Shown in pieces: positions 491-59,271 of a stretch of DNA of 60,000 nucleotides. A program made the position numbers and the translations under genes. The stretch comes from Callorhinchus milii (lineage: Eukaryota), in NCBI RefSeq assembly GCF_018977255.1, contig NW_024704742.1:108502001-108562000 (forward strand), read 5' to 3'. The notes beneath the pieces were generated by a model. The model was not told the DNA's origin, ran no database searches, and saw only the letters and a list, made by a program, of their open reading frames with translations. Position 1 is the first letter of the stretch, and every line of letters begins with the position of its first letter.

Positions 491-941
491 CCTTAAATTA
501 GTAAGTTATCATTTTATTATTACTTTTCTTGTGTTTGGCTTGGAATTCATTTGAACGGTTTGCTTTCAGCATGCTGGGCTGTATTTGGACAATTTGTCAC
601 TATGGTGAATTGTCCATTGAATGTAAACGACTCAGTCTGCTTAACAAGGATCTTTTTGCTTTTATTTATACCACAACTATTGTGCCTTACCAAAAAATAT
701 TTAAGGAGCTATTCTTTATCATGATTTTAAATAGCCAATCCTGCATCTCCCTATTCAAAAATACTTTACTTCTAAAATCGATTACCAGAACTCTCCTCAG
801 CCCCAACAGGTGTGACTGGCAGCAGGAAATCCAATTCCTGCCAGCAGCAATATCACAGCAATGTCCAGCACTACACAACCAGGTAGAAGATTACAACCTC
901 AGTCAACAAATGCAAGGTCGAGGTAAAGTGGAGATTGTTAC

Positions 942-1098
942 CTTCAGATTTGTTGCAACATCAGGGATATTCCTTTTCTCAACCAATTTGTAAAATACCT
1001 CCAGATAAGCCAGACCCTGTAACACTGGCATAGTTTTGTTCTCATGTCTCAGGTAACGGGTCAGGTCAAGAGCTCGATCAAGTGATAACTTTCCTGCA
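942..1098 (-). CDS. erap2: copy A exon 13
   Basis: [19 protein letters not shown]; 157 nt. Confidence 0.92.
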
Positions 1099-21941: not shown

Positions 21942-22094
21942 TTACTGTGGGATAGTAATATCCAATAGCCACGATCTGAGGACATCCAGATTCCGCTCCA
22001 GCCACCTAATGTTTTTCTGAATGGTTTCCAGGGCAAGCTGGGTACACCTCAGCTGGGAGCTCTGCTCCTTGATAGATTCAAAGAACATTTTCAC
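21942..22094 (-). CDS. erap2: copy B exon 18 (stop)
   Basis: [21 protein letters not shown]; 153 nt. Confidence 0.92.
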   Translation of the reverse strand: MKMFFESIKEQSSQLRCTQLALETIQKNIRWLERNLDVLRSWLLDITIPQ

Positions 22095-25000
22095 CTGAAA
22101 CAGATGTATGCAGGTAAGGGTTTGGTTTACAGGACATACTTTACAAATATAGCCTGAATATAATTGAACAATGTTCAATTATATACAACATTGCGGTCAT
22201 ATGTTCAGGTCATATGTTCAGGATGTCTACCTCTGTACTGCCAGTTACTCAGGCTAGAAAAGAGGAAATACAGGTTAAATGGGTGGCTTTATGTTTGCCC
22301 GTATCTCTATGAGGTTCTCTCTGAGTTGTTTTCTCTCAAAATTGATTATTACCCAGTGTCAGCATTTATCGTGTTTTTGGTCAGCCGGGTGCCTGAACAT
22401 GTGAAAAACCATCATCATGTTTAATAGTATCTAAACCTGAGAGGGAGCCCATATATGTATACCAACTACATCTGTAAATGTCCATGTCTGGAATGGAATG
22501 TTAAGTCTCTCCCAGAGGGACCCACCCACCTTGCATACCTGATTCCAGATTGTACTAGACACAAGTCACAAGTTTGCGAAAGCCATGGCTTGGGAACCTA
22601 TAGTGTACATCGGGGAACTACTGGAGTTTAACAAGCTTAAATTGCATAGTTTGCCACCAAGAGCATTGTCTGGCAAGCTTCTCCAGCTTGGAAAACTCTA
22701 CATATTGCAGGGTTAACAGGAGCCAAGTGGGAAAAATACCGGCCTCCCTCAGCAATCACTTCAAGTTCACGTTTAGCACAGGTTGTACGCAGAGTGCACC
22801 TTCCTTTACCTTTAAGCCTCACTTGAGAGTTTTGTACTGAATGTTCTAACATTGTCACCAACCATATTTTTGTGCTCTCTCTTTCATTGTGTTTATACAA
22901 TAACAAAAGCCACTAACCTCCTCCAATTCTTCCTGTGATGAAAAGTGAGATGTCGTTCCAATGATAAGCCATCTGATAGTGACGGAGCCAAGCTCAAATC
23001 TATGATGAATATGGACGTTGTTAAACACCCTTCACACTGGCACTTTGCAAAAGAAAATTAATGTTCTTGGACAGTTTAGCTTAGTTTAGTATTTAGTGCT
23101 GTTATGAGGTGACCGAGGTTCCTGAATGTGAGCTGCTCTTTTTATTAGTATTATATTGATCATAGAGATCTATTATGGGAAACAATGAAGGATTCTGCTC
23201 AAAGCACAAGATCATAAAAAGCCACTCATCTCAACAGATCATATCACAAGAGTATTTCAGTCTAGTTTCACTATGTGGAGATGAACACAGGTAGGTCACC
23301 CAATGCTCCTTCACTGAGCTGTAACTGCTCCCATTGCAATTGTTCTCCATATGACATTGAAACATTCAGTGTTGGTGTGTATTGCAATGCAATACAGAGT
23401 CCTGTAGCTCAGTGGTTAGAGCACTTGCCTTGCCAGTGAGAGACCTGGGTTTGATTCCCGGCAGGGTGAAACCTTGGGCAAGTTTCCTTACTCCACACGC
23501 CTAGTAATAATCACTCAAGAAAAAAAAATTGGTCACTTCAATCCATGACTGCTTTGTGGGACACTGCTGTTCGCAATTGCCTGCCACGTTTTAACCACAA
23601 ATATACAGTCAGTTCATTTTACGGTATATTCTGTGAAGCTCCCTGAGACATCTAGAAGATGTGAAAAGCGCTATATCAAATGCAAGAATTATTATTTTTT
23701 TACTTTGTTAATGTCACTGCCTTGTGCTGCTCAGATACTATGAAGGACACAAGGTCTGAATGATTAAAAAGGTACTGACTTCTCAATCAGTTTGTTCCAA
23801 TTCTTCTTCACAAAATTCCAGGCAAGGAGATGTCCGACTGGGTTTCTGCTCACTGCAGCAACGACATGGGCTAGATCCTGCAACTTGATGACATTCCCTT
23901 CCATACCAATCTCCAACAACCTGGGGATATCAGAACAGAGAAGAACTGAGCATTAAGCACAAAATAAGCCTACGCCAGCCACAGGATATGCTTCACACAT
24001 AAGTTTGAACAGAAGGCCACGCAAGTCACACATTCCTTTGCTGGTACAGCTTCCCTGTTGTTCTGCTGTTATATTTTTTTCTGAAGGAGAATACATTACT
24101 TTGTCCTATGTACAGAGTAATTACAGAAATGTTTGTTCAGAAATCTAGTTATAAAATTCTACTTGATCGATGGAAATCTGTAGCTTTTTGAAAGAACTGT
24201 TTTACAAGCTTGGAACACATTCCGAAACAATGGAGAAATCTATGAAAATAAAAACAAGCTGTTAGTTGCCTTTTAATCACATTCCAACACAATGAAATGA
24301 AACCTAACTGACATGAATAGCATCTAGTACCTTTTGGCTCCTCAATGTTTAATGTAAAATAAACTCCTTACCCTGACAGTTTCTCTGGATCCCTGGTGGC
24401 TGCCAAAGCGTTAACAATCTTAATCTTTTCAGCCCCTGACATGGACTGGATGTACTTCTTCAGGAGGTATTCCCATCCATCAGCCCTCTGGGCTCCCACA
24501 GAATACACGATCTCGAGAACATCTGTCGACAAACTGTGATACCAAACAACAGCAAGCTGAATAAATCGGGGTGTTAGTTTTCCAAGTTAATAGTCTTCAC
24601 TGCAGCCTACATGTATATACATACATAGATACATCCACAGATATTGCATGTATCTATATATAGTATATATGTACGTGCGTGAGGGTGTGTGATTGTGTTT
24701 TTTATGGGTGAACACTTTTGTCGAATAATATCAGCCAATATTTTTCCTTAATTTTTTTTAACCAATATGTAGGAAAAAAATTAATAGTTGGGGGAATTAA
24801 CAATCATAATAATTAATAATTTCCTGTATAAAGTTGTGAATATGACAATGTTTGAGTAATGCCTTGACAAGGCTTATAGTGGGGTCAAAAGTGAGCAAGG
24901 GGAGAAGGAGGAGCCTATAATCGCACACAGTGGATGAGATCAAAGATTCTTGCATTCACTACTTTATATAGGAAATAAATGTAGATAAAATCATTATGTT

Positions 25001-28000
25001 TGGTAATTTTAAAACCTCCCAGTGTGAAAATTGTCAAAAAGAATTTGATTTAAAATCGGTTTTTGACAAATCAGAAAAACATGAAGTAATGAAAGTGGCA
25101 ATATTATTGTCCAACAAAAATCTGAAAAAATAAAATAACTAGTTGATTAACTTTAACTAATCAAAGTTAAAATTAAAATTAAAGTTAAAATAACTTTAAC
25201 ACTAACTGTAGTGAACAACGTAGGCATGAATCAGAATCTTTGTAAATGCCAGTAAAAGATCATTGCACCACCGGCTAATGTAACCGGTGTAATTCAACCA
25301 AAAGCGAAAAGCAGGACTCTTGGGAAACATGCTTTGTGATTTTAAAACAGGGGACTGTTACTGGGTGCTGACTGCTATTGGAGGGAATAGTAAATTTGCT
25401 GTGCAACATTTTGATTGGATGCTTAAGGCAGAAATAGATTTGTGGCGTCCTGTAGCTCAGTGGTCAGAGAACTCGCCTCGCAAGCTTGGGTTCGATTCCC
25501 AACAGGGCAAAATGTTGGGCAAGTTTCTTTACTCCACATGCTTCTGTTTACCTTTCTTTCAAACAAAGATTAGATAGTTTTCTTTCAGGAAATAACATTA
25601 TGGGATATAGTACATAGGTAGTTTGGAACGTATGTGCAAGTGACTGCCTGATGGAAGATGGAAGACAAACTGGATGGACCTTGGTCTTTTTTCGTCCAGC
25701 ATTTCTTATGTTCTTATGTGCCTATCAGTAAGTAGGAACCCGGATGTTAATCGATTGGTGAATTGCTGTTCCTGGGGTAATAACTCCTTCAAAAAATAAT
25801 AATAAATTGGTCACTCAATCCATGATTGTTTGTGGGACACTGCTGTGCACAATTGGCTGCATTAAATGCAAGGATTATTATTATTATAGACAGATACTTG
25901 GGTAGCAGAGCTTGCCATTGGTAGCACTCTCTGGCAAGCTTTCCCACTGCTTGTCCAGCTAGGACCATTAAATCATTAGGGCTTTGGTTTACAGGGTTAA
26001 CAGGAGCTGAGTCGAAAGAGTCCTTGCGCTCAGTGACTGGTCTGCCTTTCCAAGTCCTGATGATGAGCCAGGCTGGAATACTGTGGACCTGGTGTTTCAG
26101 GAACTGGACTACAGAGACCACCACAGAGGCCTGGCTCGATTCGGACATTCATGACCAAACGTGACAAATGGAATGGATGAGCCACAGTGATGTACAGTAA
26201 ATACAGTATGATAATAATTATCCTTGCATTTGATATAGCGCTATTCACATCTTCTTGACGTCTCAAAGTGCTTCACAGAATATGCTTTAAAGTGAATTGA
26301 CCGTATATTTGTGGGCAAAACGCGGCAGCCAATTGCGCACAGCAGTGTCCCACAAACAGTCGTGGATTGAAAATGACCAATATATTATTGCTTTGTTTTT
26401 TGGAGGGATTATTATTGGGCGTGTGGAGTAAGGAAACTTGCCCAATGATACAATGATGCAGCTAGAAGCTGATAGTATAGTATAATACTATAATGTTGGA
26501 TAAGAATCATCTCAAAACCTTGCAGTATGTATGTCAGAGCTGTGTCTGATATACTTCTGGGGGTTTAAGAAATTGGCCACCAGGTGTCTCAGTGGTTCAG
26601 TATAGAGACTACTGCACACTGACACCCAGTGGTAGGAAATGGAATCACACCCACAACTGACACTGCAGTCTCCATCTCAATCAAATGGAAGTCAGGACTT
26701 CCTCACAGGAAGGAATAGTAATGTAGTAACAGTGAGAAGCTGCTGCTGCTGCCCACTCCTCACATCTGGTTCAGAGCAGCACTAGTGACGGGCTATTCCC
26801 AGGCTTCCCTTCCCAACTCTCAGCTTTTGACAAGTGTTGACAGGAGGATGGTCAAAGGAGATGTGAGAAACAACAACAACAACAACAACAACAACAGGAT
26901 TCCATTTATAAAGCGCCTTTCACGTCAGGAGGACGTCCCAAGGCGCTGAGAAAATAACTTACAAAGAAAACTAAATTGGCCTCCACCTACAGCAATCTTC
27001 ACATCTGACGGGGACATTATACCAGATTAAAAGCTTTTGATAGTAGTGGGATTGAAACCCATACCACCGAAGACACTGGAGCCTAAATCTATAGTCTTCT
27101 CTTTCTGGAGAAATTAAATACCAAACCCTTGTTCTTACCTTCAAGGCCATTCATGGTTATGCTCCCTCTACCTGTCCAACCTCATAACCCCATATCACCC
27201 TGGCACTCCCTCCACTCGGCAGACACTGGCCTGCTTCAGGACCCCCGCACTTCCCGTCCCACCATTGGTGGTCGGGCATACAGCATCTCTACCCCCACAC
27301 TCTGGAACTCTATACTGCAATCCCTCTGCTTCACCACCTCCTTCAAGTCCGGTCTGAAGACCTTCCTCTTCGACCGTCTCTTCGGCCATCCTCCCACACC
27401 CACCTTTGCTGCCCTCCTCTCCTTCTGATCCCAACTCCCAGCTCGGGACCAATACCCCTGACAGTCCAGCATCTTTCCAATGTGAAGGATGCTGTACAAG
27501 TGTAATTGTTGTTGTTCTGCCACTCAGCCACCTACCGCACCTATTACAGTAGTATATCATCACTGAATGTATAATTTACCTAACTTTATGCACCCACAAA
27601 AAGACAAAATTTACACTAGAAATTATATAAAAATATCCCTGAATGATTTTAAGAGCACTATGTAAGATCGGGTTGATTTATCAGCAATATGTATTCAAAC
27701 CTTGTTCTCATATATGTGACAATCTGATCCATCAAAAAAATTAATGACTAATAAACACTCAGCTATTCACTATTTTCTGTCTAAATGAACCAAACCCATC
27801 AATAAAACTAGGTATCAATTTCTCTATATAAGACATTTCAGCCCCTCAATGAGATTATTGGCTTAGGTTCACTCACAAACAGTCTTTGTTGTCTATATAA
27901 TATATCATCGATTACAAACTGAAGCCCAACATGGTGCTAGGATGATACTGGCAGCTGTCTGCATTTCACCACAAAGGAGAAGCTGAACTAACCTGATGGT

Positions 28001-31000
28001 GCCATTGGAATTCTTCCACTTATTGAATAAATCTAAAGCCTTTTGGAGGCAGGGAGGGTACTGCAGGTCACAGGCCATCTCCAGGAGGTTGGTGCGCAGC
28101 AGACGCTCTGACAGGGAGCCATCGTCACTCCAGGACTGCTTGTCAATCAGGTGTTTGAAAAACTCCAGAATATATCTCTGCAATATGATGGACATCACAC
28201 AAAGAGTCAGCCTGGGATTGTCTTACTTTCAATCAAATGGTCAGGGTACACAGTACAACTTGAATACAACCTTATCTGAAGGAAAAACACAAAGATTCCT
28301 TATGTTAAAGATTCACACCTGAAAACAGCCCATAATTAATTTTGTGTATCAGCTTGGCTCAATAGCTAGCATTCTCGCCTCTGAATCAGAAATTGTGGGT
28401 TCAAGCCTCATGTTGGGACTTGGAACTCATATAGTCTATGCTGACCTTTCAATGCAGTGTTGGGAATGTGCTGCATTATTGGAGATGCCGTCCCTTGAAT
28501 GGACATTAATTGAAGGCCCTCTCTCCCTGTTCAGGTGGATGTTAATGATTTCTTCTTTAAAAACGAGAAGAGAGGGAAGTTTCTCCCTCTATAATCCCTC
28601 AAATAAACTTCACTTAATGGCTGTTTGCTGAGCAGGGCTGCTGTATTTGCCCACAAAATACACAGTCCTACACTTTACAGTGTATCCTGTGAAGCACTTT
28701 GAGATTTCTTCCGAAATGTGAAAGGCAAATGTAATGAGTATTGTTGTTATTACTCTGACGTGTTTTGTCTTATTTTAATTTTTATTGTGATTTCTAATAG
28801 CCAATCCAGCATTTCCCTCTTCAAAAATATTACAGTCCTAAGATTGATTACCAGAACACTCCTCAGCCCCAACAGGTGTGACTGGCAGCAGGAAATCCAA
28901 TTCCTGCCAGCAGCAATATCACAGCAATGTCCAGCACTACAACCAGACCAAAGATTACATCCTTAGTCAACAAATGCAAGGTCTAGGTTAAGTGGAGATT
29001 GTTACCTTCAGATTTGTTGCAACATCAGGGATACTCCTTTTCTCAACCAATTTGTAAAATACCTCCAGATAAGCCAGACCCTGTAACACTGGCACAGTTT
29101 TGTTCTCGTGTCTCAGGTAACGGGTCAGGTCAAGAGCTCGATCAAGTGATAACTTTCCTGCACTAAAGAAAGCAAAAATGACACACAAATCAAGCTTTTC
29201 CACCTTCCCCCACTTCACTTTTATTTTACTCACCCCCCCCCACCTATCTTTTTACCATCTTATATCAAGAATCAGTCTCTGTTTGAAAAAAAGAATAGTG
29301 AGCGGTACACACACCTGAAACTACACCAGGGCTTATGAGCATCTCCACTGCGATGTACCACACTTTTATTTATCTTTCCCCTCCCCACTCCCCTTGGCTC
29401 CCAACTGCAGTGTTAATTGTTTTACGACGTCCTCCAAACACCAAAGATACATTGTCTGGTAATTGTATTGTACAATTCTGAGTTTCAGAAGTACTTAAGG
29501 TGTATTGGCTAGGGTATTAGGATAAACATTTGAAGAGGAACAACATAAAAACCTATGAGAAAACAGCAAATAACTGGAATTAAGAATCAATAGGTCTCAG
29601 TAGAATTGGATTAAAGTAACTCAATGACCTCCCAGGTAGTCACTTCTATGAATCTAACACTTTGATTGGGAATGTATATTCACAGAATAAGGTGATATTG
29701 ACTATCAGGTCAATAATGCTATTTATCTTGGCAATTCACAATACCTGACGAGTTGGAAAGCATTATGAATGAGGTGTGTTCGGTCCTTCATGCTCAGGAG
29801 GGTGTGATCCTGATCCAGTAGATTAACCAGTGCATCCCATCCACTGTGCTCATAGTGTACAATGTAATAGCCATTCATGTCCACGTTAAACTTCACCCAG
29901 TCAGCTTCTTTGTCCAGTTTAATAGTATCTGATTAACACAAGATCAGTGGGTTTAGTGACGTTCACCAACAAATGAAAACCTAAGAGTTTAGCTTCATCG
30001 GTTAGATTGGATTCTGAATTACACTCACACTACACCTGAATTCTGTTGTAAACATTAACAACGTCAATAATTTGCATTTATGTAGCACCCTTCATATCAG
30101 ATAATGTCTTGGAATGCTGTACAGTAGCCAGATTGGGCGCAGTTAAGAGGTAGGTTTTCAGGTGATTAAAAAATAGGTAAGGGAGGGTGTGGGTCAAAGA
30201 GGCTGAGGCAGGGAGTTCTAGAGATTATGAACGTTGTGGCTGAAGGCATGTACAGCCACTCATGGTGGCATGGAGAGATCAGGGGACTTGCAGACGTTGT
30301 GCTATGAAGGATATCACATTGCTACAAAGGCACTTGAAATAAATAGAGGGAAGAAGACTGAGATTTAAATAATTTCATATTGATACACATTTCTGTGAAG
30401 CGCTTTGCGACGTCTCGAAGACGTGATAAGGCTCTATAGCAAATGCGTAAACGTCAAATAACGATCATTATTATTTCATTAAATCTCATCAAGAAGAGCA
30501 GCCGCTCACACTCACATGAGCGCTCTGAGATGCCGTCCGGAGTGGAGGGCGCTATATAAATCCAAGTTGTTGTTGTTGAGTCTAGGTTCTGTCGGAAGTG
30601 TGTTTTCAGGATTTTCTTCACTTATGTTATAAATTTATTTTGTTGGTCAATCATAAAGTTTGTCTTAGACTGTCTTAGACTGTCTGTCCCAGCTAATTGA
30701 GCAAACAGATGGACAAGAGTAGCCTTGGATAGGGTCTGTCGTTGGTCTTTTTCCCTCTCTCATGGACCATCACCAAAGCTCTCCTCAATGGTACTCTGAC
30801 AGGACAACTAAACTAAGATACTATAGAGAACTGAGATACCATAGAGCACAGATGACCTAAGATACCATAGAGCACAGATGACCTAAGATACCATAGAGCA
30901 CAAATGACCTAAGATACTATAGAGCACAGATAACCTAAGATACTATCGAGCATAGATGACCTAAGATACTATAGAGCACAGATGAACTAAGATACTATGT

Positions 31001-34000
31001 AGCATAGATGAACTAAGATACTATGTAGCATAGATGAACTAAGATACTATATAGCATAGATGAACTAAGATACTATGTAGCATAGATGAACTAAGATACT
31101 ATGTAGCATAGATGAACTAAGATACTATATAGCATAGATGAACTAAGATACTATGTAGCAAAGATGACCTAAGATACTATAGAGCACAGATGAACTAAGA
31201 TACTATAGAGAACAGATGAACTAAGATACTATGTAGCATAGATGAACTAAGATACTATAGAGCACAGCTAATCTAAACTGGCGATGGCAGCACGTGACAC
31301 ATTGAATCTCTAATTCTGCAGTCCTTGACAACCATCTCTGCATCACACCTGGTGCCATGTGTATACTCCTCAATGTAGTGTGTACGAGATCTCTCACCTG
31401 ATTTTGTTTTCAGCAGATATCTGCCAATTCTGTCTGAGCTACTCGTGATGTAAGTTAGCGGGATGTGCCACAGATAGCTGCAAAAGATGAGGTAAAAATA
31501 TTTTTGATTCTGCAGGTGTTGCAGAAGGTGTTATAATGATCTATAAGCAAAACTCCGCCAAAAACAACACAGGAAAACAATCACAAGTGACCAATAACTA
31601 CCCAGACTGCAGTGACTCCCACACAGGGTCCTCTGGAAGGACACCCTTCAGGAAACGCTCCTGTCGTAGCCGGATTAAGCTCCCGCTGTGTTCAACAATG
31701 ATCACTGGCAGCCCTTTCTGAAGTGTCCAAGTATTCATAACCTCCTTGATGTCCAGATGTTCCTCTGTATAAAGATACTGAGGAAAATAAAGGCACAGAT
31801 TGCAGTTTTAATACTAAGCGCTTTCATACAAATGTATTTTATTCATTTGAAAAACATTGCAGATCAGTTATGGTCTACTACTGTTTGTAACTTAATCTGT
31901 TCTTAGAATCAGTAAAGTGGTGGCTAATGCAACCTTTTGAATCCACAGTATGTGTTAATGAATAAAAGAATGAACCAAAACTTACAGCGTTTTTAGCCGC
32001 TTGTGAAGTGCTGTAGCAGAATCCACCTGAAGTGAAGTTTACTTCTGTGCAAGTCTATTGGGAAGTAAGAATTTAATGGTTTAACACATGCTGAAACCAT
32101 AGATCTTCTCAGTACGTCTTTGTTTCCAAACCAAAAGAACTGAGTGAAGACAGCAAAGTTCCACCTTAATATGAGGCTCTGGGACAATGGAAATGTCAGG
32201 TCAAGATGTCTTGACAATTGTTCAAGGATGAATAATGTAGGATGTATGGGTTGATCAATATTCAATGCATTTCTCAAGTTTCGCTTTGGGGATTCAGAGG
32301 GAACCTCTGCTGAGTCTACTCTCAGTACATTATAGGATTTGGATAAAGTCTGTGGTAGAATGCATTCTGTTTGGTCTTTGAGAGAAGTAACCTTGGTTGT
32401 CTGAATAGATTTTACTTGTCCATACTTATATTAAAAAAATCCATCGTCTACTGTACTAAGTGGTTTGAAAAACTAAATTGAATCTTCTTTTAGCAACTGG
32501 TGAATTCCTCCAGGGAGAGAGTACACATTCATAGAAAATGTCCATGTGTAAGTGACATATATGCAGTATGTGGAATTCTTAGTGAGACACCTGATTGACC
32601 AAAACAAATGGTGTCAATAGACAATAATGGTGCTTTTCAAATGCAAAATCATTTTTGTTACAGAAAGGTAAAGCCTTACATTGGCCATGCTGTTCCACAG
32701 GTCCTCGTTCTTGGCATTCCCATAGCTGTATTTCCGCAGGTAAGAAACTAAGCCACTCTGGAAAACCTCCTCTGTTAGAAAATTCCTCAGCATGTGCAGA
32801 ATGCAAGCGCCCTACATTCAACAGTAGCAAAGGGTCAGTTACAACATGCAAAATCTGGAATTAATGAATTGTCCCCATTACTAAATAAAAAAGACAACCA
32901 AATAAGTAACAGACGAAGCATCAATGCTTATTCAAACCCTCTTTGAAAGACCAAACCTTGATGTACAGTAGTTTTACTGTAGCCATATGTAAATATTGGG
33001 CACATACTACCAACTAGAGAAACAGGGTTAGAGGTTAAGCATAACTTCTCCTCACATAAAGGCTTGGGATATTATCCCGATGTGAAAGACACTAATATAA
33101 CTGTAAATTTGTGTTGTACTGTATAAACACAATTCTATCAGGCATTATTAGCCTACTAAAGAATATATAAATTCTATCAAGTGGATGCCGCATTTTGCCC
33201 ACAAAGTATACAGTCAATTCACTTTACAGTATATTCTGTGAATTGCTAGGAGACTTTTCGAAGACGTGATAAGGAGCTATATCAAATGCAAAGACTATTA
33301 TTACCTTACACAGAGAGTAATTAAAGACTGGAATGGGTTACCAGGAGGCCTGTTTTAGAAACAGTTTAATGCTGTTATAGGAAGTTGGTAGGATGGGTAT
33401 TCTAGAAGGATGTGATCCAATAGGCCAAAGGGCCATTCAAACCTCTGTTTTGATTAGATTAGCCCAGGACTAGCTTTATGGTCTAGTTTCTATTAAATTT
33501 CCACTTACTTTCTCATAAGACATGGAGTCAAACATTTCCTGGATCTGAGTTGGACTTTCTGCTGCTGTGGATATGGCACGTGATGAATTCATGGAGTCGC
33601 TTCCCATTGCTCCAAAACATTTGTTCAAAAAGAAGTCATCCTGGGCAGATCAACATGAAAGAATATGTTAAATTGAGTCAAAGATCCTGTAGTTATTGAG
33701 CTACTGGTATTGAGAAGAATTTACTCACCACTTGTAGCTCTGGGTAGGTGGCACCAACAGAGACAAACTCCATGTACCGGGCAAAGCCTTCATTTAGCCA
33801 GATGTCATTCCACCACTCCATTGTCACCAGGTTACCAAACCACTGGAGGAAACAAACAATCATTAAGACACTGAAAAGTTTTCTTTAAATTAGCGAGGAT
33901 TGCAAATGGTCTTTAATTAAACTAAACTTTGAAAATTGCCACATATGTAGTAAGAAATTGAAGCAGACATAAAACCACCAGACACTGATCTCACAACTGT

Positions 34001-37000
34001 TTGCTTTTGTTGATTATTATAGCGCTGTGATTAATTACAATTGTAGTCAACTTTAACCTTTCACGTCTTCGAGACGTCTCAAAGCACTTCCAGAATGTAT
34101 TGTGAAGGGAAATGAGTATATATTGCGGGCAAAATGCAGCAGCCAATTGCACAAAGCAAACAGTGGATTGAGTGACATTTTTTTTTGAAGGGATTATAAC
34201 CCCAGATAAACGACTCACCAATCGATTAACAACCGAGTTCCTACTTACTGCTAGGTAAACAGAGGCGTGTGGAGTAAGGAAACTCGCCCAAAGTTTCGCC
34301 CTGCCTGGGAATGGAATCCGGGTCCTCTCGCTCGTGAGGCGAGTGCTCTAACCACTAAGCTATAATAATCCACCAGAATACAGCATTCCAGGATGGTATC
34401 CTGTATGAAAGTTGCTGTATAAGTGCAAGTTATTGTTATGGTATGGCTTCCACTGTAAGAGATGAAAATACCTGATGAGCCAGTTCATGCCCAATCACCA
34501 TAGTAATCCGCAGTTTATCCGATGCTGAGGAGGTCACTGAATCGTAGAGTAGAGCTGTCTCCCTATACGTGATCAAACCCCAGTTCTCCATGGCTCCTGA
34601 CTGGAAATCAGGAATCGCCACGAGGTCTAAAAGTACAATATTTCTTCTTTTATTTGTCATATCAACAAGGTCAATTTTCACAATATCATTGATATACAGT
34701 ACATTGCAACAAGATGAAATTAAATTGTTGACCTTTTAAAAGAACCTCATGATTGTATTATATCCCTTTCCCAGTAATAATAATCCTTGCATTTGATATA
34801 GAGCCTTGTCATGTCTTCTAGACGTCTCAAAGCACTTCACAGAAAATACTGTAAAGTGAATTGACTATATGTTTTGTGGGCGAAACGCAGCAGTCAATTG
34901 TGCCCAGGAGTGCACCACAAACAGTCATGGATTAAGGGACCAAATTATTATTTTTTTGAAGGGATTATTACCCCTGGATAAGCGATGCACTAATGGTCTA
35001 ACAACCGGGTTCCTACTTACTGCTTGGTAATCAGTGGCGTGTGGAGTAAGGAAACTTGCCCAACGTTTATGTTGATATTGCCATACCTTGCTTTGGGAGT
35101 GGGAAGTAGATATTGAAATAATGTTCATAAAACTCCAGTAGTTTCACCGCTGCTTCCAAAGCATAGTGAGTTTGGCTCCACTTGTCTGGAACAGCGTATA
35201 TGGACACCTATTAAGTGGGGTATAGACGTGTCAAAGTCCTTCACTTCAATGAGCAGGAAAGTGTACATTGCATCTCAGAACAGGCAATTGCTTACAACAT
35301 AGTTTCACACAAAAAAACCTCTTAAAACAACCAGCTTCAAAATTAAAGACTGATTAATGAATTTTCCCACATTCTTGACACTCTTAAATAGTGCATTAAT
35401 AGAGCAGATCTATACCTAGGTGGAATTTTACCCCATATAAATATTGAATATGAGGTACCTGGGTGTGCAGGGCACTGGATTGTCCCTCCTCCCAATTGAT
35501 ACCCCTAGTTAAAGATCCCATGGCATTCGTTCAGAGAAGAGCAGGAAGTTACTGTATTCTGGTCCCCTGGATAATATTATTTGTTGATACTTGTTCTTTT
35601 GGCATGTTTCGGGTCCCTATTAGCTGTCACACTTGACTATATCAACAGAATACATTGTATAGTAACTCAATGGGAAGCCTTTTGAAAGATATTGACCCAA
35701 TGAGTGGCTACGTAACAGTTATTCTGCTTAATTTTTTTTGAAATTTTATTTACTTGATGTGGCAGCAATGTTGTGTTCCATACACCCAGCCATACAGAGC
35801 AGGAACCAGGACAAGACACAGAGAGACAACTTTGGTGCAAAGCTCACCTTAATTCCTGTTGAAGTTATAGCACTAACAGATTTGAAGTCGCAGACAATAA
35901 ATGCCACCAGGTATGTGCTCATCCTCACACTCACAGCAAAATGGTCTTCAAAAAGCCCCTCCCCTATTGGTAAAGATTTAACCTGGAAGATATAAAAACA
36001 AAATATTCACTTATGAAGCAGAACATTTTTTTCAAATGAAACATTTACTTTCTCACTGTTTTTTCCAAAAAAAAGTTTTTTGTGAGTTTAAGACAAAACT
36101 TGTGGAGTCCTGTAGCTCAGTGGTTAGAGCACTCGCTTTGCAAGTGAGAGACCTGAGTTCAATTCCAGGCAGGGCGAAACCTTGGGCAAGTTTCCTTACT
36201 CCACACGCCTAATAATAATAATCCCTCCAAAAAACCAAAAACAATAATTAAATTGGTCATTTTCAATCTACGACTGCTTGTGGGACATTGCTGTGCGCAA
36301 TTGGCTGCCGCGTTCGCCCACAAATATAGTCAATTCACCTTACAGTGTGTTCTGTGAAGCGCTTTGGGACGTCCTCCCGACGTGAAAAGCGTTATATCAA
36401 ATGCAAGGATTATTATTATTATTATTATTATAAAACTTATTCACATCTGTGTTAGATGGTGTTAATTTAAAGTGAGGTGGAAATGAGGGTTAGAGTCTGA
36501 TAATAAGGCTTCCGTCACTGTGAGCTCAGACACAACCAGCTTTTTTTTATTTAATTCTTCACTCACTCACTCGCTCCCTCACTCGCTCCCTCCCTTCCTC
36601 CCTCTCTCATTCATAAAAGCCATCATAGAGACAGTGTATGAAAAGCCAGAGTTCTCCTCTTTTTACCCATTTGACAATAACGTGAAGTGGAAAGTTTGTC
36701 TGTAGTTGCAGGTCAGGCTAAACAATCCTACAATCATAAACAGTGAGGGTGTGACTGTCAAACAGAATGAAGACCACTTACCATGGGCATGTTGGACAGT
36801 GCAATGTATTGGCTGCCTCTCCTGATCTTGACTGAGAAGTTCGCTTTGAAAGACGGTTCATCAAAGCAAGGAAAGGCCATGCGTGCTGATGTAGGTTCAA
36901 AATCGGTAGAAGCAAGCAGTCTAGAAAGGGAAGACATTCATCAAAAGAAATTAGAGCAAGTTAAATGAATGTGAAATAAGCGAAGGGCAAGTTGCACATT

Positions 37001-40000
37001 AAGGCAACTATTTATATTGCCCTGGGATCATGTGGGGGATGAGTATGTGTACATCCAACCCAACTCTATCTCTTTATCTAGTATGTGTACTTTTTATATA
37101 CTGAGATAAGGCAGCTAATTTATAATTATAATAAATAAACAAAATTCCTTGCATTTGATACAGAATATTTCATGTTGGTCGGACGTCGCAAAGGGCTTTA
37201 CAGGATATTCTGTAAAGTGCAGTGATGGTGTATTTTATAGATTGATGACATAATTTGGGGTATTGTCAAGATTACCCATTTGTGACTCGGAGTTGGGTTT
37301 TTGATACTGCGCTCTCCATGCAATGAATTTGTCGGGCTAAGCCTAATACCACTCCATTGAAATAGATGCACAATCAGCATACACAACAGCAATTCCATGT
37401 GAAGCACTTTGTGAGGTTTCATGTTATAGGCATGATTTCAAATGCAAGAATTATCAAATGCATACATAAGGGAGTAAGGAACAGAGGGGCATTGGAGATG
37501 GGAGGGGGATTGGGACAGGTGGAGGCTCACCTGGAGTATATACACTGGCACAGGACAGTTGGTCTGAAAGGCCGGTTTCTGTGATGTAACATTCTATGCT
37601 ATGCAAAACTTTGCTCCTGTTTGCTACTAATAATCAACTAAAGAAGAAATCTTCATGTGGGGGCAGAGAGCATGGTTGACGTACTGAATGAGAAATTCCA
37701 TCTGTGTCACAAAAGAGGAGGATGCAGCCGATGCCACAGTATCGGAGGAGAGAGTAGAAAATTGGATAAGATAAGAATAAACCGAGAGGAGATACTAAAA
37801 AGTTTGTTTTTAGTCTGGACGGGATGCATCCTAGCTTACTGTGGGAAGTAAGGGGGGACATAATGGAGGCTCTGGCCATAATCTTTCAATCCTCCTTGGA
37901 CACCGGGGGCGGTGCCAGAGGACTGGAGGGTTGTTACTCCCCTATACAAAAAGGGGCACAAGAATAAACCTGGGAACTACAGGCCAGTCAGCCTAATGTC
38001 AGTAGTGAGGAAACATCTAGAGACTATAATCCGGGACAAAATAATTTTTCATACAGAAAAATATGGGTTAATAAAATACAGCCAACACAGATTTATTAAA
38101 GGCAAATCATGTCGAACAAATCTGATAGAATTTTTTGATGAAGTAACGGAGAGGATGAGTGAAGGTAACCGTGCCTTCAGCTCCCCTCTCGACTCTCTAC
38201 CCCCTCCTCGCTCCCTCCCTTCACTCACACTGACCATTTCCTGCTGCTCGGGTCCCGACCCAACTGTCCAGCGCCTTGGCACGTCCTCCCGACGTGAAAG
38301 GCGCTTTATAAATGCAATCTTGTTGTTGTGATAATAATAATCCTTGCATTTGATATAGCACTTTTCACATCATCTAGATGTCTTAAAGCACTTCATAGAA
38401 TAGGCTGTAAAGTGAATTGACTGTATATTTGTGGGCGAAATGCGGCAGCTAATTGCGCACAGCAGTGTCCCCCAAACAGTCGTAGATTGAAATGACCAAT
38501 TTATTATTGTTTTTTTTTAAGGGATTATTATCAGGCGTGTGGAGTAAGGAAACTTGCTCAAGGTTTCGCCCTGACGGGAATCGAATCCAGGTCTCTCACT
38601 TGCAAAGTGAGTGCTCTAACCACTGAGCTACAGGACTCCACAAGGTAGTGCAGTTGATGTAGTTTATATGGATTTTCAAAAGGCGTTTGATAAATACCAC
38701 ATAAGAGACTTGTAAGCAAAATAGAAGCCCACGTATTAAAGGGACAGTGGCAGCATGGATACAGGACTGGCTGGGAGACAGAAAGCAGAAAGCACAGAGT
38801 GGTGGTGAACAGGTGCTGACAGCATCAGCATCCAAGGCTGCACTCTCCACCTCTCAAAGGCAGTCAGGAACCTCGGTGTTCTGTTCGACCCTGAGACGTC
38901 CTTTCTTCCTCATATCCGCACCACAACTGGCACTGCCTTCCATCACCTCCGGAACATCGCCAGACTACGGCACTACCTCACCCCTCACGCTGCTGAAACT
39001 CTGGTCCACGCCTTTGTCACCTCAAGGCTGGACTATGGAACTCTCTCCTCGCCGGCCTTCCCGCCACCTCCCTCCACAAGCTGCAGGTCATTCAGAACTC
39101 TGCAGCTCGTGTACTCTCCCGCACCAGACTTCGGGACCACATCACTCCCACCCTCGCTCGCCTCCACTGGCTCCCCATCCCCCAGAGGATCGAATTCAAG
39201 ATCCTCACCCTCACCTACAAGGCCATTCACGGCCTCGCTCCCTCCTACCTCTCCGACCTACTATCGCCCTACTTACCTGCCCATACCCTCCTTTCTTCTG
39301 GCTGCGGACTGCTCTACATCCCCCGCCCTAACTGCCCTACCATCGGTTGGTGGGCCTTCAGCCTCTCAGCCCCGAGGCTCTGGAACTCCATCCCCCAGTG
39401 CCTTCGCCGCCTCCTCCCTTTCCTCCTTCAAGGCCGGTCTCAAGACCTTTCTCTTTGACCGTGCCTTCAGCTTCCCTCTCACTCTCTTCCCCCTCCTCGC
39501 TCCCTCCCTTCCCTCCCCTCACCCTGACCATTTACCCCCTGCTCGGGTCCTGACCCAACTGTCCAGCGCCTTGGGACGTCCTCCCGACGTGAAAGGCGCT
39601 CTATAAATGAAATCTTGTTGTTGTTGTTGTTTTTCTGACTGGAGGGAAGTGTGGAGTAGTGTCCCCCAGGGTTCAGTATTGGGACCACTGCTGTTTTTGA
39701 TCTATAAAAATGAGCTGGACTTGGGTATAGGGAGTACAATTTCCAAGTTTACAGATGATACTAAACTTGGGAAATGTAGTAAACAGTGAGGAGGATAGTA
39801 GCAGACAACAAATAGACATAGACAGACTGTAAAAATGGGCAGACACGTGGCAGATTAAGTTTAATGTGGAGAAATGCGAAGCGATATATTTTGATGGTGC
39901 AATTCTAAAGAGGGTGAAGGAACAGAGAGATCTGGTGGTTCATACAAGTAAATCTGTGAAGGTGGCAGGACAGGTAGATAAAGCTGTTAAAAAAGCATAC

Positions 40001-41218
40001 AGGATACTAGGGTTTATAAATATGGTCATAGAATACAAAAGTCAGGAAGTTATGATGAACCTTTATAAAACACTGGTTAGGCCTCAGCTGGAGTGCAGTG
40101 TTCAGTTCTGAGCACCATACTTTAGAAAGAATGTCAAGACATTGGAGAGAGCGCAAAGGAGATTTACCAGGAATAAGGGACTTCAGTTATGAGGAAGGCT
40201 AGAGAAGCTAGGATACTTCTCCTTGGAGCAGAGAAGGTTAAGAGGAGATTTAATAGAAGTTTTCAAAATTATGAAGGGATTTCATAGGGTGAACAAGGAG
40301 AAACTATTTCCACTGGTGGGTGGGTCGGTAACTTAAGGACACCAATTTAAAATAGTTGTTAAAAGAAACAGAGGGGAGATGAGGAGAAATTTTTTCACAC
40401 AGCGAGTTGTTTGGATCTGGAATTCATTGCCTGAAAGGGTGGTGGAAGCCAATTCGATAACAACTTTTAAGAGAAATAGATAATTATTTGGGGAGGACAC
40501 GCTTGCAGGGCTATCGGGAGAGAGTAGGGGAGTGGGATTGATTTGGATAGCTCTTTTCAAAGAGCCGGCACAGACATGATGGGCTGAATAGTCTCCTTCT
40601 GTGTTGTATAATTCTATGATTCTACAACATTGAGGGAACAGTTTACTCGGGTACCAGAGCAGCATTTATGAGTTAACCACATACAAAACAAATGCTAACT
40701 TACCTTGTTTTGCCATCTTGTGTTTTATAGCTGCTTTTGTAGAAACCATAGAAACCGTCAGACAGATTGGCTGCATAGTTTATGTTAATAATGTACTTCT
40801 CTCCAGCACCCAGAGGCTCAATAGACTGAAGCGCTATTTGCTCGTAAGGTGGAAACTCCAAAACATTCATGGCTTTTTCATGTTGGGCAATTCCATCTTG
40901 TGTTAATGCAATGGTGGCGCTGGTGATTTCCAGGTACTTGCTGTGGAGGACAATGGAGTTGGTGTCTTGTTTGACAGAGACCTCAATCTTGGCTACTCCA
41001 GTGAAACTCAGAGTGGTTAGATTTGGGTGTATCAACAGGTCATAGTGAAGTGGGATGATTCTATTGGGCAACCTCATCTTGTTCCAGGGAAATTTCTGTC
41101 CATTAGAAGCTATAGGAGCATCTCCACTCTCATGGTCATTGGTGCTTAATGCAGAGCTCAGCAAGAACTGCAATAGTATTCCAGCAATCAATAACACCAT
41201 CTCCCTTTTCGATAACAT
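21942..41218 (-). CDS. erap2: ERAP2-like ER aminopeptidase, copy B (complete, 18 coding exons, 2832 nt, 943 aa)
   Basis: Exon sizes 515,139,135,121,155,114,132,132,69,176,80,184,157,185,162,141,82,153 sum to 2832 with consistent phases. GAMEN, HELAH..E and SYEKG are present. Loop [13 protein letters not shown] and [13 protein letters not shown] resemble ERAP2 rather than ERAP1 or LNPEP. Confidence 0.92.
22918..22999 (-). CDS. erap2: copy B exon 17
   Basis: [27 protein letters not shown]; 82 nt. Confidence 0.92.
23396..23695 (+). mobile_element. tRNA-derived SINE (paralogous copy at 47435-47731)
   Basis: A/B boxes and (ATT)n tail; same site in B and C. Confidence 0.85.
23780..23920 (-). CDS. 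erap2: copy B exon 16
   Basis: [20 protein letters not shown]; 141 nt. Confidence 0.92.
24372..24533 (-). CDS. erap2: copy B exon 15
   Basis: [20 protein letters not shown]; 162 nt. Confidence 0.92.
25443..25886 (+). mobile_element. tRNA-derived SINE interrupted by a CR1-type 3' end (~25555-25719)
   Basis: SINE head and tail flank a segment ending ttcttatgttcttatg. Confidence 0.65.
26870..26946 (-). mobile_element. minimal L2 3'-end insertion with TSD
   Basis: TGAGAAA duplicated on both sides; empty site in C at 48871. Confidence 0.8.
27038..27098 (-). pseudogene. tRNA-Leu(TAG)-like 3' fragment
   Basis: Reverse complement tagatttaggctccagtgtcttcggtggtatgggtttcaatcccactactatca resembles the anticodon, variable and T arms of tRNA-Leu; 5' half absent. 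Confidence 0.55.
27128..27516 (+). mobile_element. L2 LINE 3' fragment
   Basis: [20 protein letters not shown]. Confidence 0.75.
27993..28177 (-). CDS. erap2: copy B exon 14
   Basis: [21 protein letters not shown]..; 185 nt. Confidence 0.92.
29006..29162 (-). CDS. erap2: copy B exon 13
   Basis: [12 protein letters not shown]; 157 nt. Confidence 0.92.
29745..29928 (-). CDS. erap2: copy B exon 12
   Basis: [12 protein letters not shown]; 184 nt. Confidence 0.92.
30815..31270. repeat. 26-bp minisatellite, about 17 units
   Basis: Unit AAGATACTATAGAGCACAGATGAACT with variants. Confidence 0.92.
31398..31477 (-). CDS. erap2: copy B exon 11
   Basis: [12 protein letters not shown]; 80 nt. Confidence 0.92.
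31602..31777 (-). CDS. erap2: copy B exon 10
   Basis: [22 protein letters not shown]; 176 nt. Confidence 0.92.
31986..32054 (-). CDS. erap2: copy B exon 9
   Basis: [13 protein letters not shown]; 69 nt. Confidence 0.88.
32680..32811 (-). CDS. erap2: copy B exon 8
   Basis: [12 protein letters not shown]; 132 nt. Confidence 0.92.
33509..33640 (-). CDS. erap2: copy B exon 7
   Basis: [22 protein letters not shown]; 132 nt. Confidence 0.92.
33729..33842 (-). CDS. erap2: copy B exon 6
   Basis: [11 protein letters not shown]; 114 nt. Confidence 0.95.
34057..34362 (-). mobile_element. tRNA-derived SINE, copy B only
   Basis: tagcttagtggttagagcactcgc head; absent at C 56880. Confidence 0.8.
34472..34626 (-). 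CDS. erap2: copy B exon 5 (GAMEN, HEXXH)
   Basis: [27 protein letters not shown]; 155 nt. Confidence 0.95.
34775..35064 (-). mobile_element. 5'-truncated SINE shared by B and C (57450-57745)
   Basis: SINE body and (ATT)n tail; absent in A at ~11400. Confidence 0.8.
35087..35207 (-). CDS. erap2: copy B exon 4
   Basis: [15 protein letters not shown]; 121 nt. Confidence 0.92.
35848..35982 (-). CDS. erap2: copy B exon 3
   Basis: [13 protein letters not shown]; 135 nt. Confidence 0.92.
36102..36431 (+). mobile_element. full-length young tRNA-derived SINE
   Basis: A box TAGCTCAGTGG, B box GTTCAATTCC, L2-like hairpin, (ATT)n tail, TSD AAAACTT, empty site in C at ~58527. Confidence 0.92.
36782..36920 (-). 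CDS. erap2: copy B exon 2
   Basis: [22 protein letters not shown]; 139 nt. Confidence 0.92.
37650..40624 (+). mobile_element. CR1 LINE with nested L2 (38168-38329, 38813-39630) and SINE (38330-38642), copy B only
   Basis: [52 protein letters not shown] tail; interrupted by the named elements. Confidence 0.88.
40704..41218 (-). CDS. erap2: copy B coding exon 1
   Basis: One aa different from copy A exon 1 (YIIN vs YVIN); 515 nt. Confidence 0.92.
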
Positions 41219-45989: not shown

Positions 45990-46142
45990 TTACTGTGGGA
46001 TAGTAATATCCAATAGCCACGATCTGAGGACATCCAGATTCCGCTCCAGCCACCTAATGTTTTTCTGAATGGTTTCCAGGGCAAGCTGGGTACACCTCAG
46101 CTGGGAGCTCTGCTCCTTGATAGATTCAAAGAACATTTTCAC
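45990..46142 (-). CDS. erap2: copy C exon 18 (intact sequence, but out of frame after the exon-17 deletion)
   Basis: Encodes the same peptide as B exon 18 in its original frame. Confidence 0.75.
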   Translation of the reverse strand: MKMFFESIKEQSSQLRCTQLALETIQKNIRWLERNLDVLRSWLLDITIPQ

Positions 46143-49100
46143 CTGAAACAGATGTATGCAGGTAAGGGTTTGGTTTACAGGACATACTTTACAAATATAG
46201 CCTGAATATAATTGAACAATGTTCAATTATATACAACATTGCGGTCATATGTTCAGGTCATATGTTCAGGATGTCTATCTCTGTACTGCCAGTTACTCAG
46301 GCTAGAAAAGAGGAAATACAGGTTAAATGGGTGGCTTTATGTTTGCCCGTATCTCTATGAGGTTCTCTCTGAGTTGTTTTCTCTCAAAATTGATTATTAC
46401 CCAGTGTCAGCATTTATCGTGTTTTTGGTCAGCCGGGTGCCTGAACATGTGAAAAACCATCATCATGTTTAATAGTATCTAAACCTGAGAGGGAGCCCAC
46501 ATATGTATACCAACTACATCTGTAAATGTCCATGTCTGGAATGGAATGTTAAGTCTCTCCCAGAGGGACCCACCCACCTTGCATACCTGATTCCAGATTG
46601 TACTAGACACAAGTCACAAGTTTGCGAAAGCCATGGCTTGGGAACCTATAGTGTACACCGGGGAACTACTGGAGTTTAACAAGCTTAAATTGCATAGTTT
46701 GCCACCAAGAGCATTGTCTGGCAAGCTTCTCCAGCTTGGAAAACTCTACATATTGCAGGGTTAACAGGAGCCAAGTGGGAAGAATACCGGCCTCCCTCAG
46801 CAATCACTTCAAGTTCACGTTTAGCACAGGTTGTACGCAGAGTGCACCTTCCTTTACCTTTAAGCCTCACTTGAGAGTTTTGTACTGAATGTTCTAATAT
46901 TGTCACCAACCATATCTTTGTGCTCTCTCATTCATTGTGTTTATACAATAACAAAAGCCACTAACCTCCTCCAATTCTTCCTGTGAGATGTCGTTCCAAC
47001 CATAAGCCATCTGATAGTGAAGGAGCCAAGCTCAAATCTGTGAAGAATATGGACATTGTTAAACACCCTTCACACTGGCACTTTGCAAAAGAAAAATAAT
47101 GTTCTTGGACAGTTTAGCTTAATTTAGTATTTAGTGCTGTTATGAGTTGCCCGAGGTTCCTGAATGTCAGCTGCTCTTTTTATTAGTATTATATTAATCA
47201 TAGAGATCTATTATGGGAAACAATGAAGGATTCTGTCCAACGCACAAGATCATAAAAAGCCACTCATCTCAACAGATCATATCACAAGAGTATTTCAGTC
47301 TAGTTTCACTATGTGGAGATGAACACAGGTAGGTCACCCAATGCTCCTTCACTGAGCTGTAACTGCTCCCATTGCAATTGTTCTCCACATGACATTGAAA
47401 CATTCAGTGTTGGTGTGTATTGCAATGCAATACAGAGTCCTGTAGCTCAGTGGTTAGAGCACTTGCCTTGCCAGTGAGAGACCTGGGTTTGATTCCCGGC
47501 AGGGTGAAACCTTGGGCAAGTTTCCTTACTCCACACGCCTAATAATAATCACTCAAGAAAAAAAATTGGTCACTTCAATCCATGACTGCTTTGTGGGACA
47601 CTGCTGTTCGCAATTGCCTGCCACGTTTTACCCACAAATATACAGTCAGTTTATTTTACAGTATATTCTGTGAAGCTCTTTGAGACGTCTAGAAGACGTG
47701 AAAAGCGCTATATCAAATGCAAGAATTATTTTTTTTTACTTCGTAAATGTCACTACCTTGTGCTGCTCGGATACTACTGAAGGACACAAGGTCTGAATGA
47801 TTAAAAAGGTACTGACTTCTCAATCAGTTTGTTCCAATTCGTCTTCACAAAATTCCAGGCAAGGAGATGTCCGACTGGGTTTCTGCTCACTGCAGCAACG
47901 ACATGGGCTAGATCCTGCAACTTGATGACATTCCCTTCCATACCAATCTCCAACAACCTGGGGATATCAGAACAGAGAAGAACTGAGCATCAAGCACAAA
48001 ATAAGCCTACGCCAGCCACAAGATGTGCTTCACACACAAGTTGAGTGCAGAAGGCCATGTGACTGACACACTCCTTTGGTGTGATAGCTGCCCTGTTGCT
48101 CTGCTATTCTTTTTTTCTGAAGGAGAATATATTACCTCTTATTTGCAGAGTAACTGGTTTGGTTCAGAAATGTAGTTATACCTATTTTACTTGATCTAAA
48201 GAAATCTATATATTTTTTTAAAAGAAGTGTTTTACAAGCTTGGAACAAGAGATAAATCCATGAAAAGTAAAACAAGCTGTTAGTTGCCTTGTAATCACAA
48301 CCCAACACAATGAATGAAGCTTAACGGGCATGAATAGCCTTTTGGCTTCTCAATGTTTAATGTAAAATAAACTCCTTACTGTGCCAGTTTCTCTGGATCC
48401 CTGGTGGCTGCCAAAGCGTTAACAATCTTAATCTTTTCAGCCCCTGACATGGACTGGATGTACTTCTTCAGGAGGTATTCCCATCCATCAGCCCTCTGGG
48501 CTCCCACAGAATACACGATCTCGAGAACATCTGTTGGCAAACTGTAATACCAAACAGTCAGCTGAATAAATCGGGTATCTTGTATGTGTACATATATATT
48601 TGTTTGTATGTATCTACGCACGTATGTATGTGAGGGTGAGAAGATGGATGAGTGAGTGAATGAATAAGTGAGCGAGTGAGGATGTGAAGAGGCATGTTTG
48701 TGTTCATTAATAAGATATGGAATGGTAATGTAGTATCAGTGAAAAGCTGCTGCTGCTGCCCACTCCTCACATCTGGTTCAGAGCAGCACTAGTGACAGGC
48801 TATTCCCAGGCTTCACTTCCCAACTCTCAGCTTTTGACAAGTGTTGACAGAAGGATTGTCAAAGGAGGCATGAGAAAATAACTTACAAAGAAACCTAAAT
48901 TGGCCTCCACCTATAGCAATCTTCACATTTGACGTGGACATTATACAAGATGAACAAGATGATTAGCTTTCTAAACAAACAAGAAGTTGACCACCCAATG
49001 AACTAACCTGATGGTGCCGTCGGAATTCTTCCACTTATTGAATAAATCTAAAGCCTTTTGGAGGCAGGGAGGGTACTGCAGGTCACAGGCCATCTCCAGG

Positions 49101-58965: not shown

Positions 58966-59271
58966 CTAGAAAGGGAAGACATTCATCAAAAGAAATTAGA
59001 GCAAGTTAAGTGAACGTGAAATAAGTGAAGGGCAAGTTGCACATCATAGCAACTATTTTTATTGCCATGTGCATAGGTTCATCCAACCAAACTCTAACTC
59101 TTTGTCTAGTATGTGTACTTTTTGTATACTGGGGTAAGGCGGCTAATTTATAATTATAATAAATAAATAATATTCCTTGCATTTGATATAGAATCTTTCA
59201 TGTTCGGAGGACATCTCAAATCGCTTCACAGGATACACTGTAAAGTGTAGTGATGATATATTTTATGAATT

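Follow-up and report, generated by a model that had tools for sequence, protein, structure and literature searches.

An Asp/His difference at the S1 specificity position among three tandem ERAP2-clade aminopeptidase genes of Callorhinchus milii

Introduction

Can a single base divide a young array of peptide-trimming aminopeptidases into enzymes of different specificity? The question is raised by a 60,000-nucleotide stretch of the Callorhinchus milii genome (RefSeq assembly GCF_018977255.1, contig NW_024704742.1, positions 108,502,001 to 108,562,000 of the forward strand), hereafter the window, which lies on one 139-Mb contig and is designated C1:108502001-108562000. The window carries three tandem minus-strand genes, copies A, B, and C, that belong to the M1 zinc aminopeptidases of the ERAP2 clade. 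ERAP1 and ERAP2 shape the peptides that reach class I molecules of the major histocompatibility complex (MHC), a role in which the difference between their P1 preferences is central.

The original prediction, made from the letters of the window, held that copy B carries Asp and copies A and C carry His at the position that governs S1 specificity, that B trims basic residues while A and C prefer others, and that the array may have recreated an ERAP1/ERAP2-like division of labour. The observation is confirmed here and its interpretation is partly supported.

Results

Codon 178 and its register

The residue in question is encoded by codon 178, which in every copy lies inside the 139-nucleotide exon 2, behind an AG acceptor. 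The minus strand reads ACC GAT TTT GAA CCT in B and ACC CAT TTT GAA CCT in A and C, as originally reported. Codon 178 is GAT (Asp) in B (36902..36904) and CAT (His) in A (14736..14738) and C (58947..58949). Exon 2 of B, placed at 36782..36920 by the splice model, differs from that of A at three of 139 bases (36904, 36857, and 36842) and from that of C at four of 139, the additional one being 36854. Position 36904 is the sole difference from A and C that changes the protein in this exon, which is otherwise identical among the copies at the protein level, just as predicted. Exactly three copies of exon 2 are present in the genome at an identity of at least 98%, and the next best among the nine matches listed is 66% identical.

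The register that had been assumed for codon 178 holds in an alignment with the human enzymes. In a phmmer search against PDB chains, the 44 residues of the exon align without gaps to residues 193-236 of ERAP2 and 176-219 of ERAP1. Since the Asp of B is residue 6 of the exon, it falls on ERAP2 Asp198 and ERAP1 Gln181. Two codons further on, GAA (36896..36898 in B) encodes a Glu in all three copies at the position of ERAP2 Glu200. Exon 2 encodes the S1 residue together with the Glu by which the substrate N-terminus is anchored.

The premise that Asp198 confers an Arg preference and that Q181D changes specificity is borne out by passages of two papers. One describes the guanidinium group of a P1 Arg held by Asp198 and Glu200 of ERAP2 (PMC11284793), and the other an altered substrate specificity of ERAP1 Q181D (PMC6131210). 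A section of PMC3342382, summarising Zervoudi et al. 2011, counts 12 residues in the S1 pocket and relates a larger number of acidic ones to a more basic P1 preference. The acidic S1 residues given there are three in ERAP2 (E177, D198, and D888), two in IRAP, and one in ERAP1 (E865). In the array, codon 868 (GAG, 22993..22995 in B) encodes a Glu in all three copies at the acidic S1 position of ERAP2 Asp888 and ERAP1 Glu865. Position 157, which corresponds to human ERAP2 Glu177, is Tyr in the array and Asp in the turtle and crocodile sequences of the tree described below. B has two acidic S1 residues (178 and 868), and A and C have one (868).

Direction of the change

A tree of 54 rows was built from the three gene models and 51 of 120 listed database proteins and was rooted on four LNPEP rows. 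The 69 rows left out are mostly isoforms, close relatives (cyprinids, snakes, and C. milii database isoforms), and short fragments. The tree comes from a quick IQ-TREE search under LG+G4, with branch support given by the Shimodaira–Hasegawa-like approximate likelihood ratio test (SH-aLRT) and without bootstraps. The S1 motif is found in 71 of the 120 listed proteins, with Gln in 34, His in 21, and Asp in 16.

The tree splits cleanly into ERAP1 (22 rows, SH-aLRT 99) and ERAP2 (28 rows, SH-aLRT 100). Copies A, B, and C are monophyletic (SH-aLRT 100) and nest in a clade of chondrichthyan ERAP2 (99). Of the 28 ERAP2-clade rows, 19 have His: A, C, four elasmobranchs, the coelacanth, the sturgeon, nine teleosts, and a pair of turtle 'ERAP2-like' proteins. 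Asp occupies the position in seven rows (B, four turtle rows, crocodile, and lemur) and Gln in the remaining two, both from myliobatiform rays (Mobula and Hemitrygon; P0010 and P0013). Outside the ERAP2 clade, 25 rows have Gln and one has His. The amniote Asp-type ERAP2 rows form a clade apart from the chondrichthyan genes.

Because His is common in the ERAP2 clade, the Asp of B is the derived state, reached from CAT to GAT. His is the usual residue of the clade and not the odd one, and on this tree it is ancestral for chondrichthyan ERAP2 genes. The Asp of B has an origin independent of that in amniote ERAP2. At least five state changes at residue 178 are required on the whole tree, on which the S1 residue has switched repeatedly across the family. 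Two further placements concern the same site: the turtle His-type (P0020/P0021) and Asp-type (P0049/P0067) ERAP2-clade genes fall in separate clades, and one teleost ERAP1-like protein (P0114, Arapaima) has His.

Contigs from sequencing runs

Four of 24 listed sequencing runs (X1, X2, X5, and X10) were compared with positions 33450-37000 of the window at 98% likeness. The runs consist of assembled contigs and report presence only. X5 and X10 were taken to be RNA from their exon-exon joints, of which X1 and X2, the DNA-like runs, have none; the joint 35980->36780 of copy B is present in contigs of both X5 and X10.

Record 10 of X10 joins exons 4, 3, and 2 at the modelled splice sites and runs on past exon 2. 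At the positions in exons 3 and 4 that are diagnostic for B it is of B type, and at 36904 it has GAT. It differs from B of the window at 35868, where it encodes Val257, and at the silent positions 36842, 36854, and 36857, where it is C-like. Record 9 of the same run is of B type over exons 5-7; it keeps Phe396, Phe397, Lys400, and Met433 and has TGG (Trp) at codon 343. A B-type contig of X1 also has TGG at this codon. Codon 178 lies outside the cover of X2, and the X5 contigs end about 95 bases short of it. Contigs that match B-specific introns exactly, as well as contigs of copy C type, are present in both X1 and X2.

Catalytic motifs

All three copies retain the exopeptidase motif GAMEN at 314, the zinc ligands HELAH at 350 and WLNEG at 370 (HEXXH plus the distal Glu), and SYEKG at 434. 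The catalytic Tyr435 of the last motif, equivalent to ERAP1 Tyr438 and ERAP2 Tyr455, is present in all 54 rows of the tree. In B, GAMEN (residues 314-318, exon 5) lies at 34583..34597 and the zinc-binding HELAH (residues 350-354) at 34475..34489, as derived from the positions of codons 312 and 343, respectively.

A database protein that represents copy A (P0006) scores 164.9 bits with Peptidase_M1_N, 266.0 with Peptidase_M1, and 276.2 with ERAP1_C, for which the curated Pfam cut-offs are 25.8, 27.7, and 38.2 bits. An isoform of copy B (P0007) contains the same three domains with similar scores. Its matches to human ERAP2 chains have E = 0 and are slightly stronger than those to ERAP1 chains. 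The array encodes M1 zinc aminopeptidases, predicted to be of the endoplasmic reticulum type, that would trim peptide N-termini.

Codon 312 of A (10861-10863) encodes Glu in this copy alone and Gln otherwise. The residue lies two positions before GAMEN, beside Ser313, and adds a negative charge close to the active site of A.

Divergence of the copies and other replacements in B

Nei-Gojobori pairwise estimates of synonymous (dS) and nonsynonymous (dN) divergence are, for A-B, dS 0.060 and dN 0.0125 (dN/dS 0.21); for A-C, 0.070 and 0.0118 (0.17); and for B-C, 0.032 and 0.0103 (0.32). The values show copies that are young and under purifying selection. Among the copies, 46 protein columns vary, including the frame-shifted stretch of C. 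Copy-unique changes, given as silent/replacement, number 25/14 in A, 7/9 in B, and 11/7 in C.

Thirteen replacements are unique to B: H178D, V257I, W343R, Y396F, L397F, T400K, V433M, G486V, M674V, N694S, P767S, F872V, and K888Q. Three of the 13 (178, 343, and 872) fall on named pocket residues. Taking about 20 of the 943 residues as pocket positions gives a hypergeometric P of about 0.002; the pocket list was picked after the changes had been seen, so the clustering is a hint and not a test.

Codon 343 of B is CGG (Arg; 34508..34510), at the position of ERAP2 Trp363, in contrast to TGG (Trp) in A and C. Trp363 is among the S1'-defining residues of ERAP2 in a passage of PMC9558494. A Trp occupies this position in 27 of the 28 ERAP2-clade rows, B being the exception. 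Codon 872 of B is GTC (Val; 22981..22983), where A and C have Phe. It aligns with ERAP2 Tyr892 and ERAP1 Ser869, which passages of PMC9558494 and PMC11284793 treat as the residue of S2' selectivity or gating.

Y396F, L397F, and T400K result from four clustered base changes in codons 396-400 (33620..33634), all kept in the B-type contig of X10. Met433 (ATG, 33521..33523; Val in A and C) lies two residues before Tyr435 and is kept in contigs of X10 and X5. The four changes in codons 396-400 fall within 13 bases and give Phe-Phe-x-x-Lys, the states of the shark ERAP1 rows. Exon 7 of LNPEP was considered as their donor and ruled out, as the changes are not in that exon.

Gene models and surroundings

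Spliced models of all three copies were obtained by tblastn and a splice-site search, with flanking DNA added to the window. A comparison of the window with itself reveals a gene-sized unit repeated three times as long direct repeats. The models have 18 coding exons per copy, all introns being of the AG/GT kind, and A and B have open frames of 943 residues. Copy B is a complete ERAP2-clade gene (21942..41218). Exons 1-13 of A are inside the window (1..16258), and its exons 14-18 extend up to 6.7 kb before the window start. Exons 2-18 of C are inside (45990..60000), and its exon 1 lies about 0.9-1.45 kb past the window end. Intron 1 measures 3.8 kb in B versus 1 kb in A.

A protein search with the first exon of B was examined for the best 120 of 131 matches. 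Within these, the seven top matches are C. milii UniRef entries of 99-100% identity; next come proteins of sharks and rays that bear the name ERAP2, at 56-65%. The database proteins were assigned to the copies as follows: P0006 to A; P0003, P0004, P0005, and P0007 to B; and P0001 and P0002 to C. Exon 1 encodes a hydrophobic N-terminal stretch. The P0006 model begins in a short upstream exon (window 17192-17248 and 42143-42205) and joins mid-exon 1, bypassing the hydrophobic N-terminus, which could reflect either an alternative start or an artefact of prediction.

Exon 1 and the upstream regions of A (15660-17383) and B (40620-42340) are 98.55% identical over 1.7 kb, and most other aligned stretches are about 88-94% identical. 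The 5' likeness points to concerted evolution of the 5' ends. Weak reverse-transcriptase matches, under the Pfam cut-off, occur at 37882-38331 (plus strand) in the enlarged intron 1 of B and at 42658-43701 (minus strand) upstream of B, and mark decayed retroelements. A low-complexity repeat rich in His, Thr, and Pro spans about 42.7-44.3 kb.

Exon 17 of C (46962-47037) contains a 10-base-pair deletion relative to A and B after 46983 (46982..46983). With the donor used in A and B, the frame shifts and ends at a stop at residue 891, so that about 50 residues are lost from the C-terminus. Use of a GT that lies four bases downstream would bring back the original frame. The database models of C (P0001 and P0002) terminate in the shifted frame. 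This copy is perhaps a young pseudogene and may not be a working partner.

LNPEP (C1:108423739-108453638) adjoins copy A, about 42 kb past its last exon. The gene order is LNPEP, A, B, and C, on the minus strand throughout. Exon 1 of this neighbour is 75% identical over 283 residues to shark LNPEP, including the cytoplasmic N-terminal tail, and 43-48% identical to ERAP1. LNPEP also lies beside ERAP2 at human 5q15, according to a passage of PMC7390905. The array adjoining LNPEP matches this human order.

No ERAP1 orthologue was found in the genome with a shark ERAP1 query, whose best matches are the ERAP2 copies (61%) and LNPEP (52%) with 48 of 98 candidates scored. Likewise, no C. milii protein appears among the 120 best database matches to the query, where tetrapod ERAP1 proteins stand at 65-72%. 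An ERAP1 orthologue is thus not detectable in the C. milii genome, for which an assembly gap is possible. Sharks and rays do have ERAP1. An M1 locus on contig 5 was rejected as ERAP1: it has QFSPT instead of the Q/H/D-FEPT motif and belongs to a different family member. In PMC7390905, a survey of 248 species with cartilaginous fishes not among them, ERAP1 is missing in most bony fishes and ERAP2 is older than mammals. The literature searched on ERAP2 of elephant shark, cartilaginous fish, teleosts, and zebrafish yielded nothing on the fish S1 residue or this array, and no published enzymology of a His-form ERAP2.

Discussion

How could the array have come to differ at S1? In the account we propose, the chondrichthyan ERAP2 orthologue was recently triplicated in tandem, and a single C-to-G change after duplication turned the ancestral His178 of B into Asp. 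The Glu that holds the substrate amino group follows residue 178 by two positions, and residue 178, like ERAP2 Asp198 and ERAP1 Gln181, would contact the P1 side chain. The S1 pocket of B would so gain the Asp-x-Glu pair that holds an Arg side chain in human ERAP2, and Asp178 and Glu868 together would give B two acidic S1 residues versus one in A and C. B would then be better than the His-type copies at removing N-terminal Arg and Lys, and the array would cover a wider range of N-terminal residues. We consider this account, taken as a whole, somewhat on the probable side. The shift of B towards Arg and Lys is a reasonable inference; a preference of A and C for other residues is guesswork. As for the ERAP1/ERAP2-like division of labour, the independent origin of the Asp is shown and the functional split is conjectural. 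The comparison itself needs other wording: all copies belong to the ERAP2 clade, and no ERAP1 orthologue was found.

Several observations weigh against this account. Read support for GAT is partial: it is provided by the spliced contig of X10, and the sole contig of X1 over 36904 reads CAT. This contig equals C at five of five sites at which B and C differ (36683-36964) and has a depth of 28 compared with about 15 in neighbouring contigs. Its depth and its ends fit a misplaced contig of copy C, loss of the B path in assembly, or an allele of B converted to His. As X1 shows only the CAT contig at codon 178, the Asp of B may be polymorphic and not fixed in the population. With its silent C-like bases, the GAT contig of X10 could be a mosaic of two paralogues; these bases and Val257 also suggest that the copies exchange short tracts by gene conversion or occur in recombinant haplotypes. 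X10 has neither Arg343 nor Ile257 of the window, and Arg343 is also not in the B-type contig of X1, so that part of the B-specific list is polymorphism. Val872 is a reading of the reference sequence of the window. In its ratio of replacement to silent changes, B shows no significant difference from A and C combined (9:7 against 21:36; Fisher P = 0.25), and B has two of the three acidic S1 residues of human ERAP2. Our reading of the contigs is that GAT is real and transcribed, that the reference haplotype is variant in carrying Arg343 and Ile257, and that sequence moves between the copies.

The same observations can be read as drift in a redundant young duplicate, which we regard as possible but doubtful. 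Asp, Arg343, and Val872 would be neutral or slightly harmful variants that segregate while A supplies the function, in a locus under birth-and-death turnover. Such turnover agrees with the frameshifting deletion that C already carries, with copies that differ by a dS of only 0.03-0.07 and exchange sequence, as in the nearly identical 5' ends of A and B against more divergent sequence elsewhere, with the variants of B that are missing from other runs (Arg343 and Ile257, and possibly Asp in X1), and with a replacement-to-silent ratio that is not significantly raised. Against drift, the overall dN/dS of 0.17-0.32 indicates constraint, the replacement is exactly the residue of amniote ERAP2, and GAT occurs on a second sequence background in X10. 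Three pocket residues among 13 changes would also be unlikely under uniform drift, with the post hoc choice noted above.

Two other explanations concern the activity of B and the assembly. Asp might mainly lower or change catalytic efficiency, in which case B would act as an enzyme of weak activity or as the partner of another subunit. This would be favoured by the title of Goto et al. 2008, which calls Gln181 crucial for ERAP1 activity and specificity, and by the loss from B of the conserved Trp343 (in the reference haplotype) and of Phe872. We nevertheless find it unlikely: the catalytic motifs of B are all intact, and an Asp at S1 is compatible with full ERAP2 activity in the passage of PMC11284793. 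It is very improbable that GAT is an assembly error or that the copies are alleles misplaced side by side, even with CAT in the sole X1 contig at codon 178. The GAT codon is found both in the X10 contig and in four database isoforms (P0003, P0004, P0005, and P0007), possibly from one animal. Intron lengths and insertions differ among the copies, which lie on a single contig, and the contigs of X1 and X2 include matches to B-specific introns as well as the C type.

The account of a triplication followed by His178Asp in B has consequences if it is true. His would be the specificity residue of the ERAP2 clade in early jawed vertebrates, and Asp at the S1 site would have arisen at least twice. A cartilaginous fish with no detectable ERAP1 would hold young paralogues, differing at about 3% of residues including this one, that come close to a natural mutagenesis experiment on P1 preference. 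A bolder version, which we offer as speculation and think rather improbable, is that the chimaera lineage lost ERAP1 and rebuilt two-specificity trimming from ERAP2 duplicates. The groove of B would have been selected at S1, at S1' (Trp343Arg, still segregating), and at S2' (Phe872Val), and gene conversion would shuffle the pocket variants into different haplotypes. The array would then behave as a small polymorphic antigen-processing locus, and its Asp would be a second, independent invention of the ERAP2-type acidic S1 pocket.

Comparison with known enzymes

Human ERAP2 (3SE6 and 6EA4) matches the copies over their full length with the same domains. Its Asp198 and Glu200 correspond to Asp178 of B and Glu180, its acidic residue 888 to Glu868, its Trp363 to Trp343 of A and C, and its Arg895 to Arg875. 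The copies differ from it in several positions. A and C have His at S1, Glu177 is replaced by Tyr157, and Pro333 by Ser313, a Ser shared with ERAP1. At the position of Tyr892, A and C have Phe and B has Val, and the Asp of B is of separate origin from the amniote Asp.

Human ERAP1 shares with the copies the Ser before GAMEN (Ser316, equivalent to Ser313) and, with A and C, a single acidic S1 residue (Glu865, equivalent to Glu868). ERAP1 and its Q181D mutant are of the same family, and their S1 position corresponds to codon 178. However, ERAP1 has Gln and not His at S1, and the copies fall in the ERAP2 clade. IRAP/LNPEP resembles B in having two acidic S1 residues, and a passage of PMC3342382 describes IRAP as trimming hydrophobic and basic N-termini. 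Its acidic residues, Glu426 and Glu541, are located elsewhere, the 181/198 position is Gln, and the protein has a membrane anchor.

The His-type ERAP2 proteins of elasmobranchs, coelacanth, sturgeon, and teleosts are orthologous to the array and resemble A and C in His, Trp343, Phe872, and Arg875. Among the rows used, these fishes have one ERAP2-clade sequence per species and no tandem trio that differs at S1, and two rays have Gln. A parallel to the array is found in turtles, in which a His-type and an Asp-type ERAP2-clade enzyme occur in one genome (Dermochelys P0020 and P0049). The turtle pair is old and deeply diverged, and its Asp type has three acidic S1 residues, whereas the C. milii pair differs at about 3% of residues.

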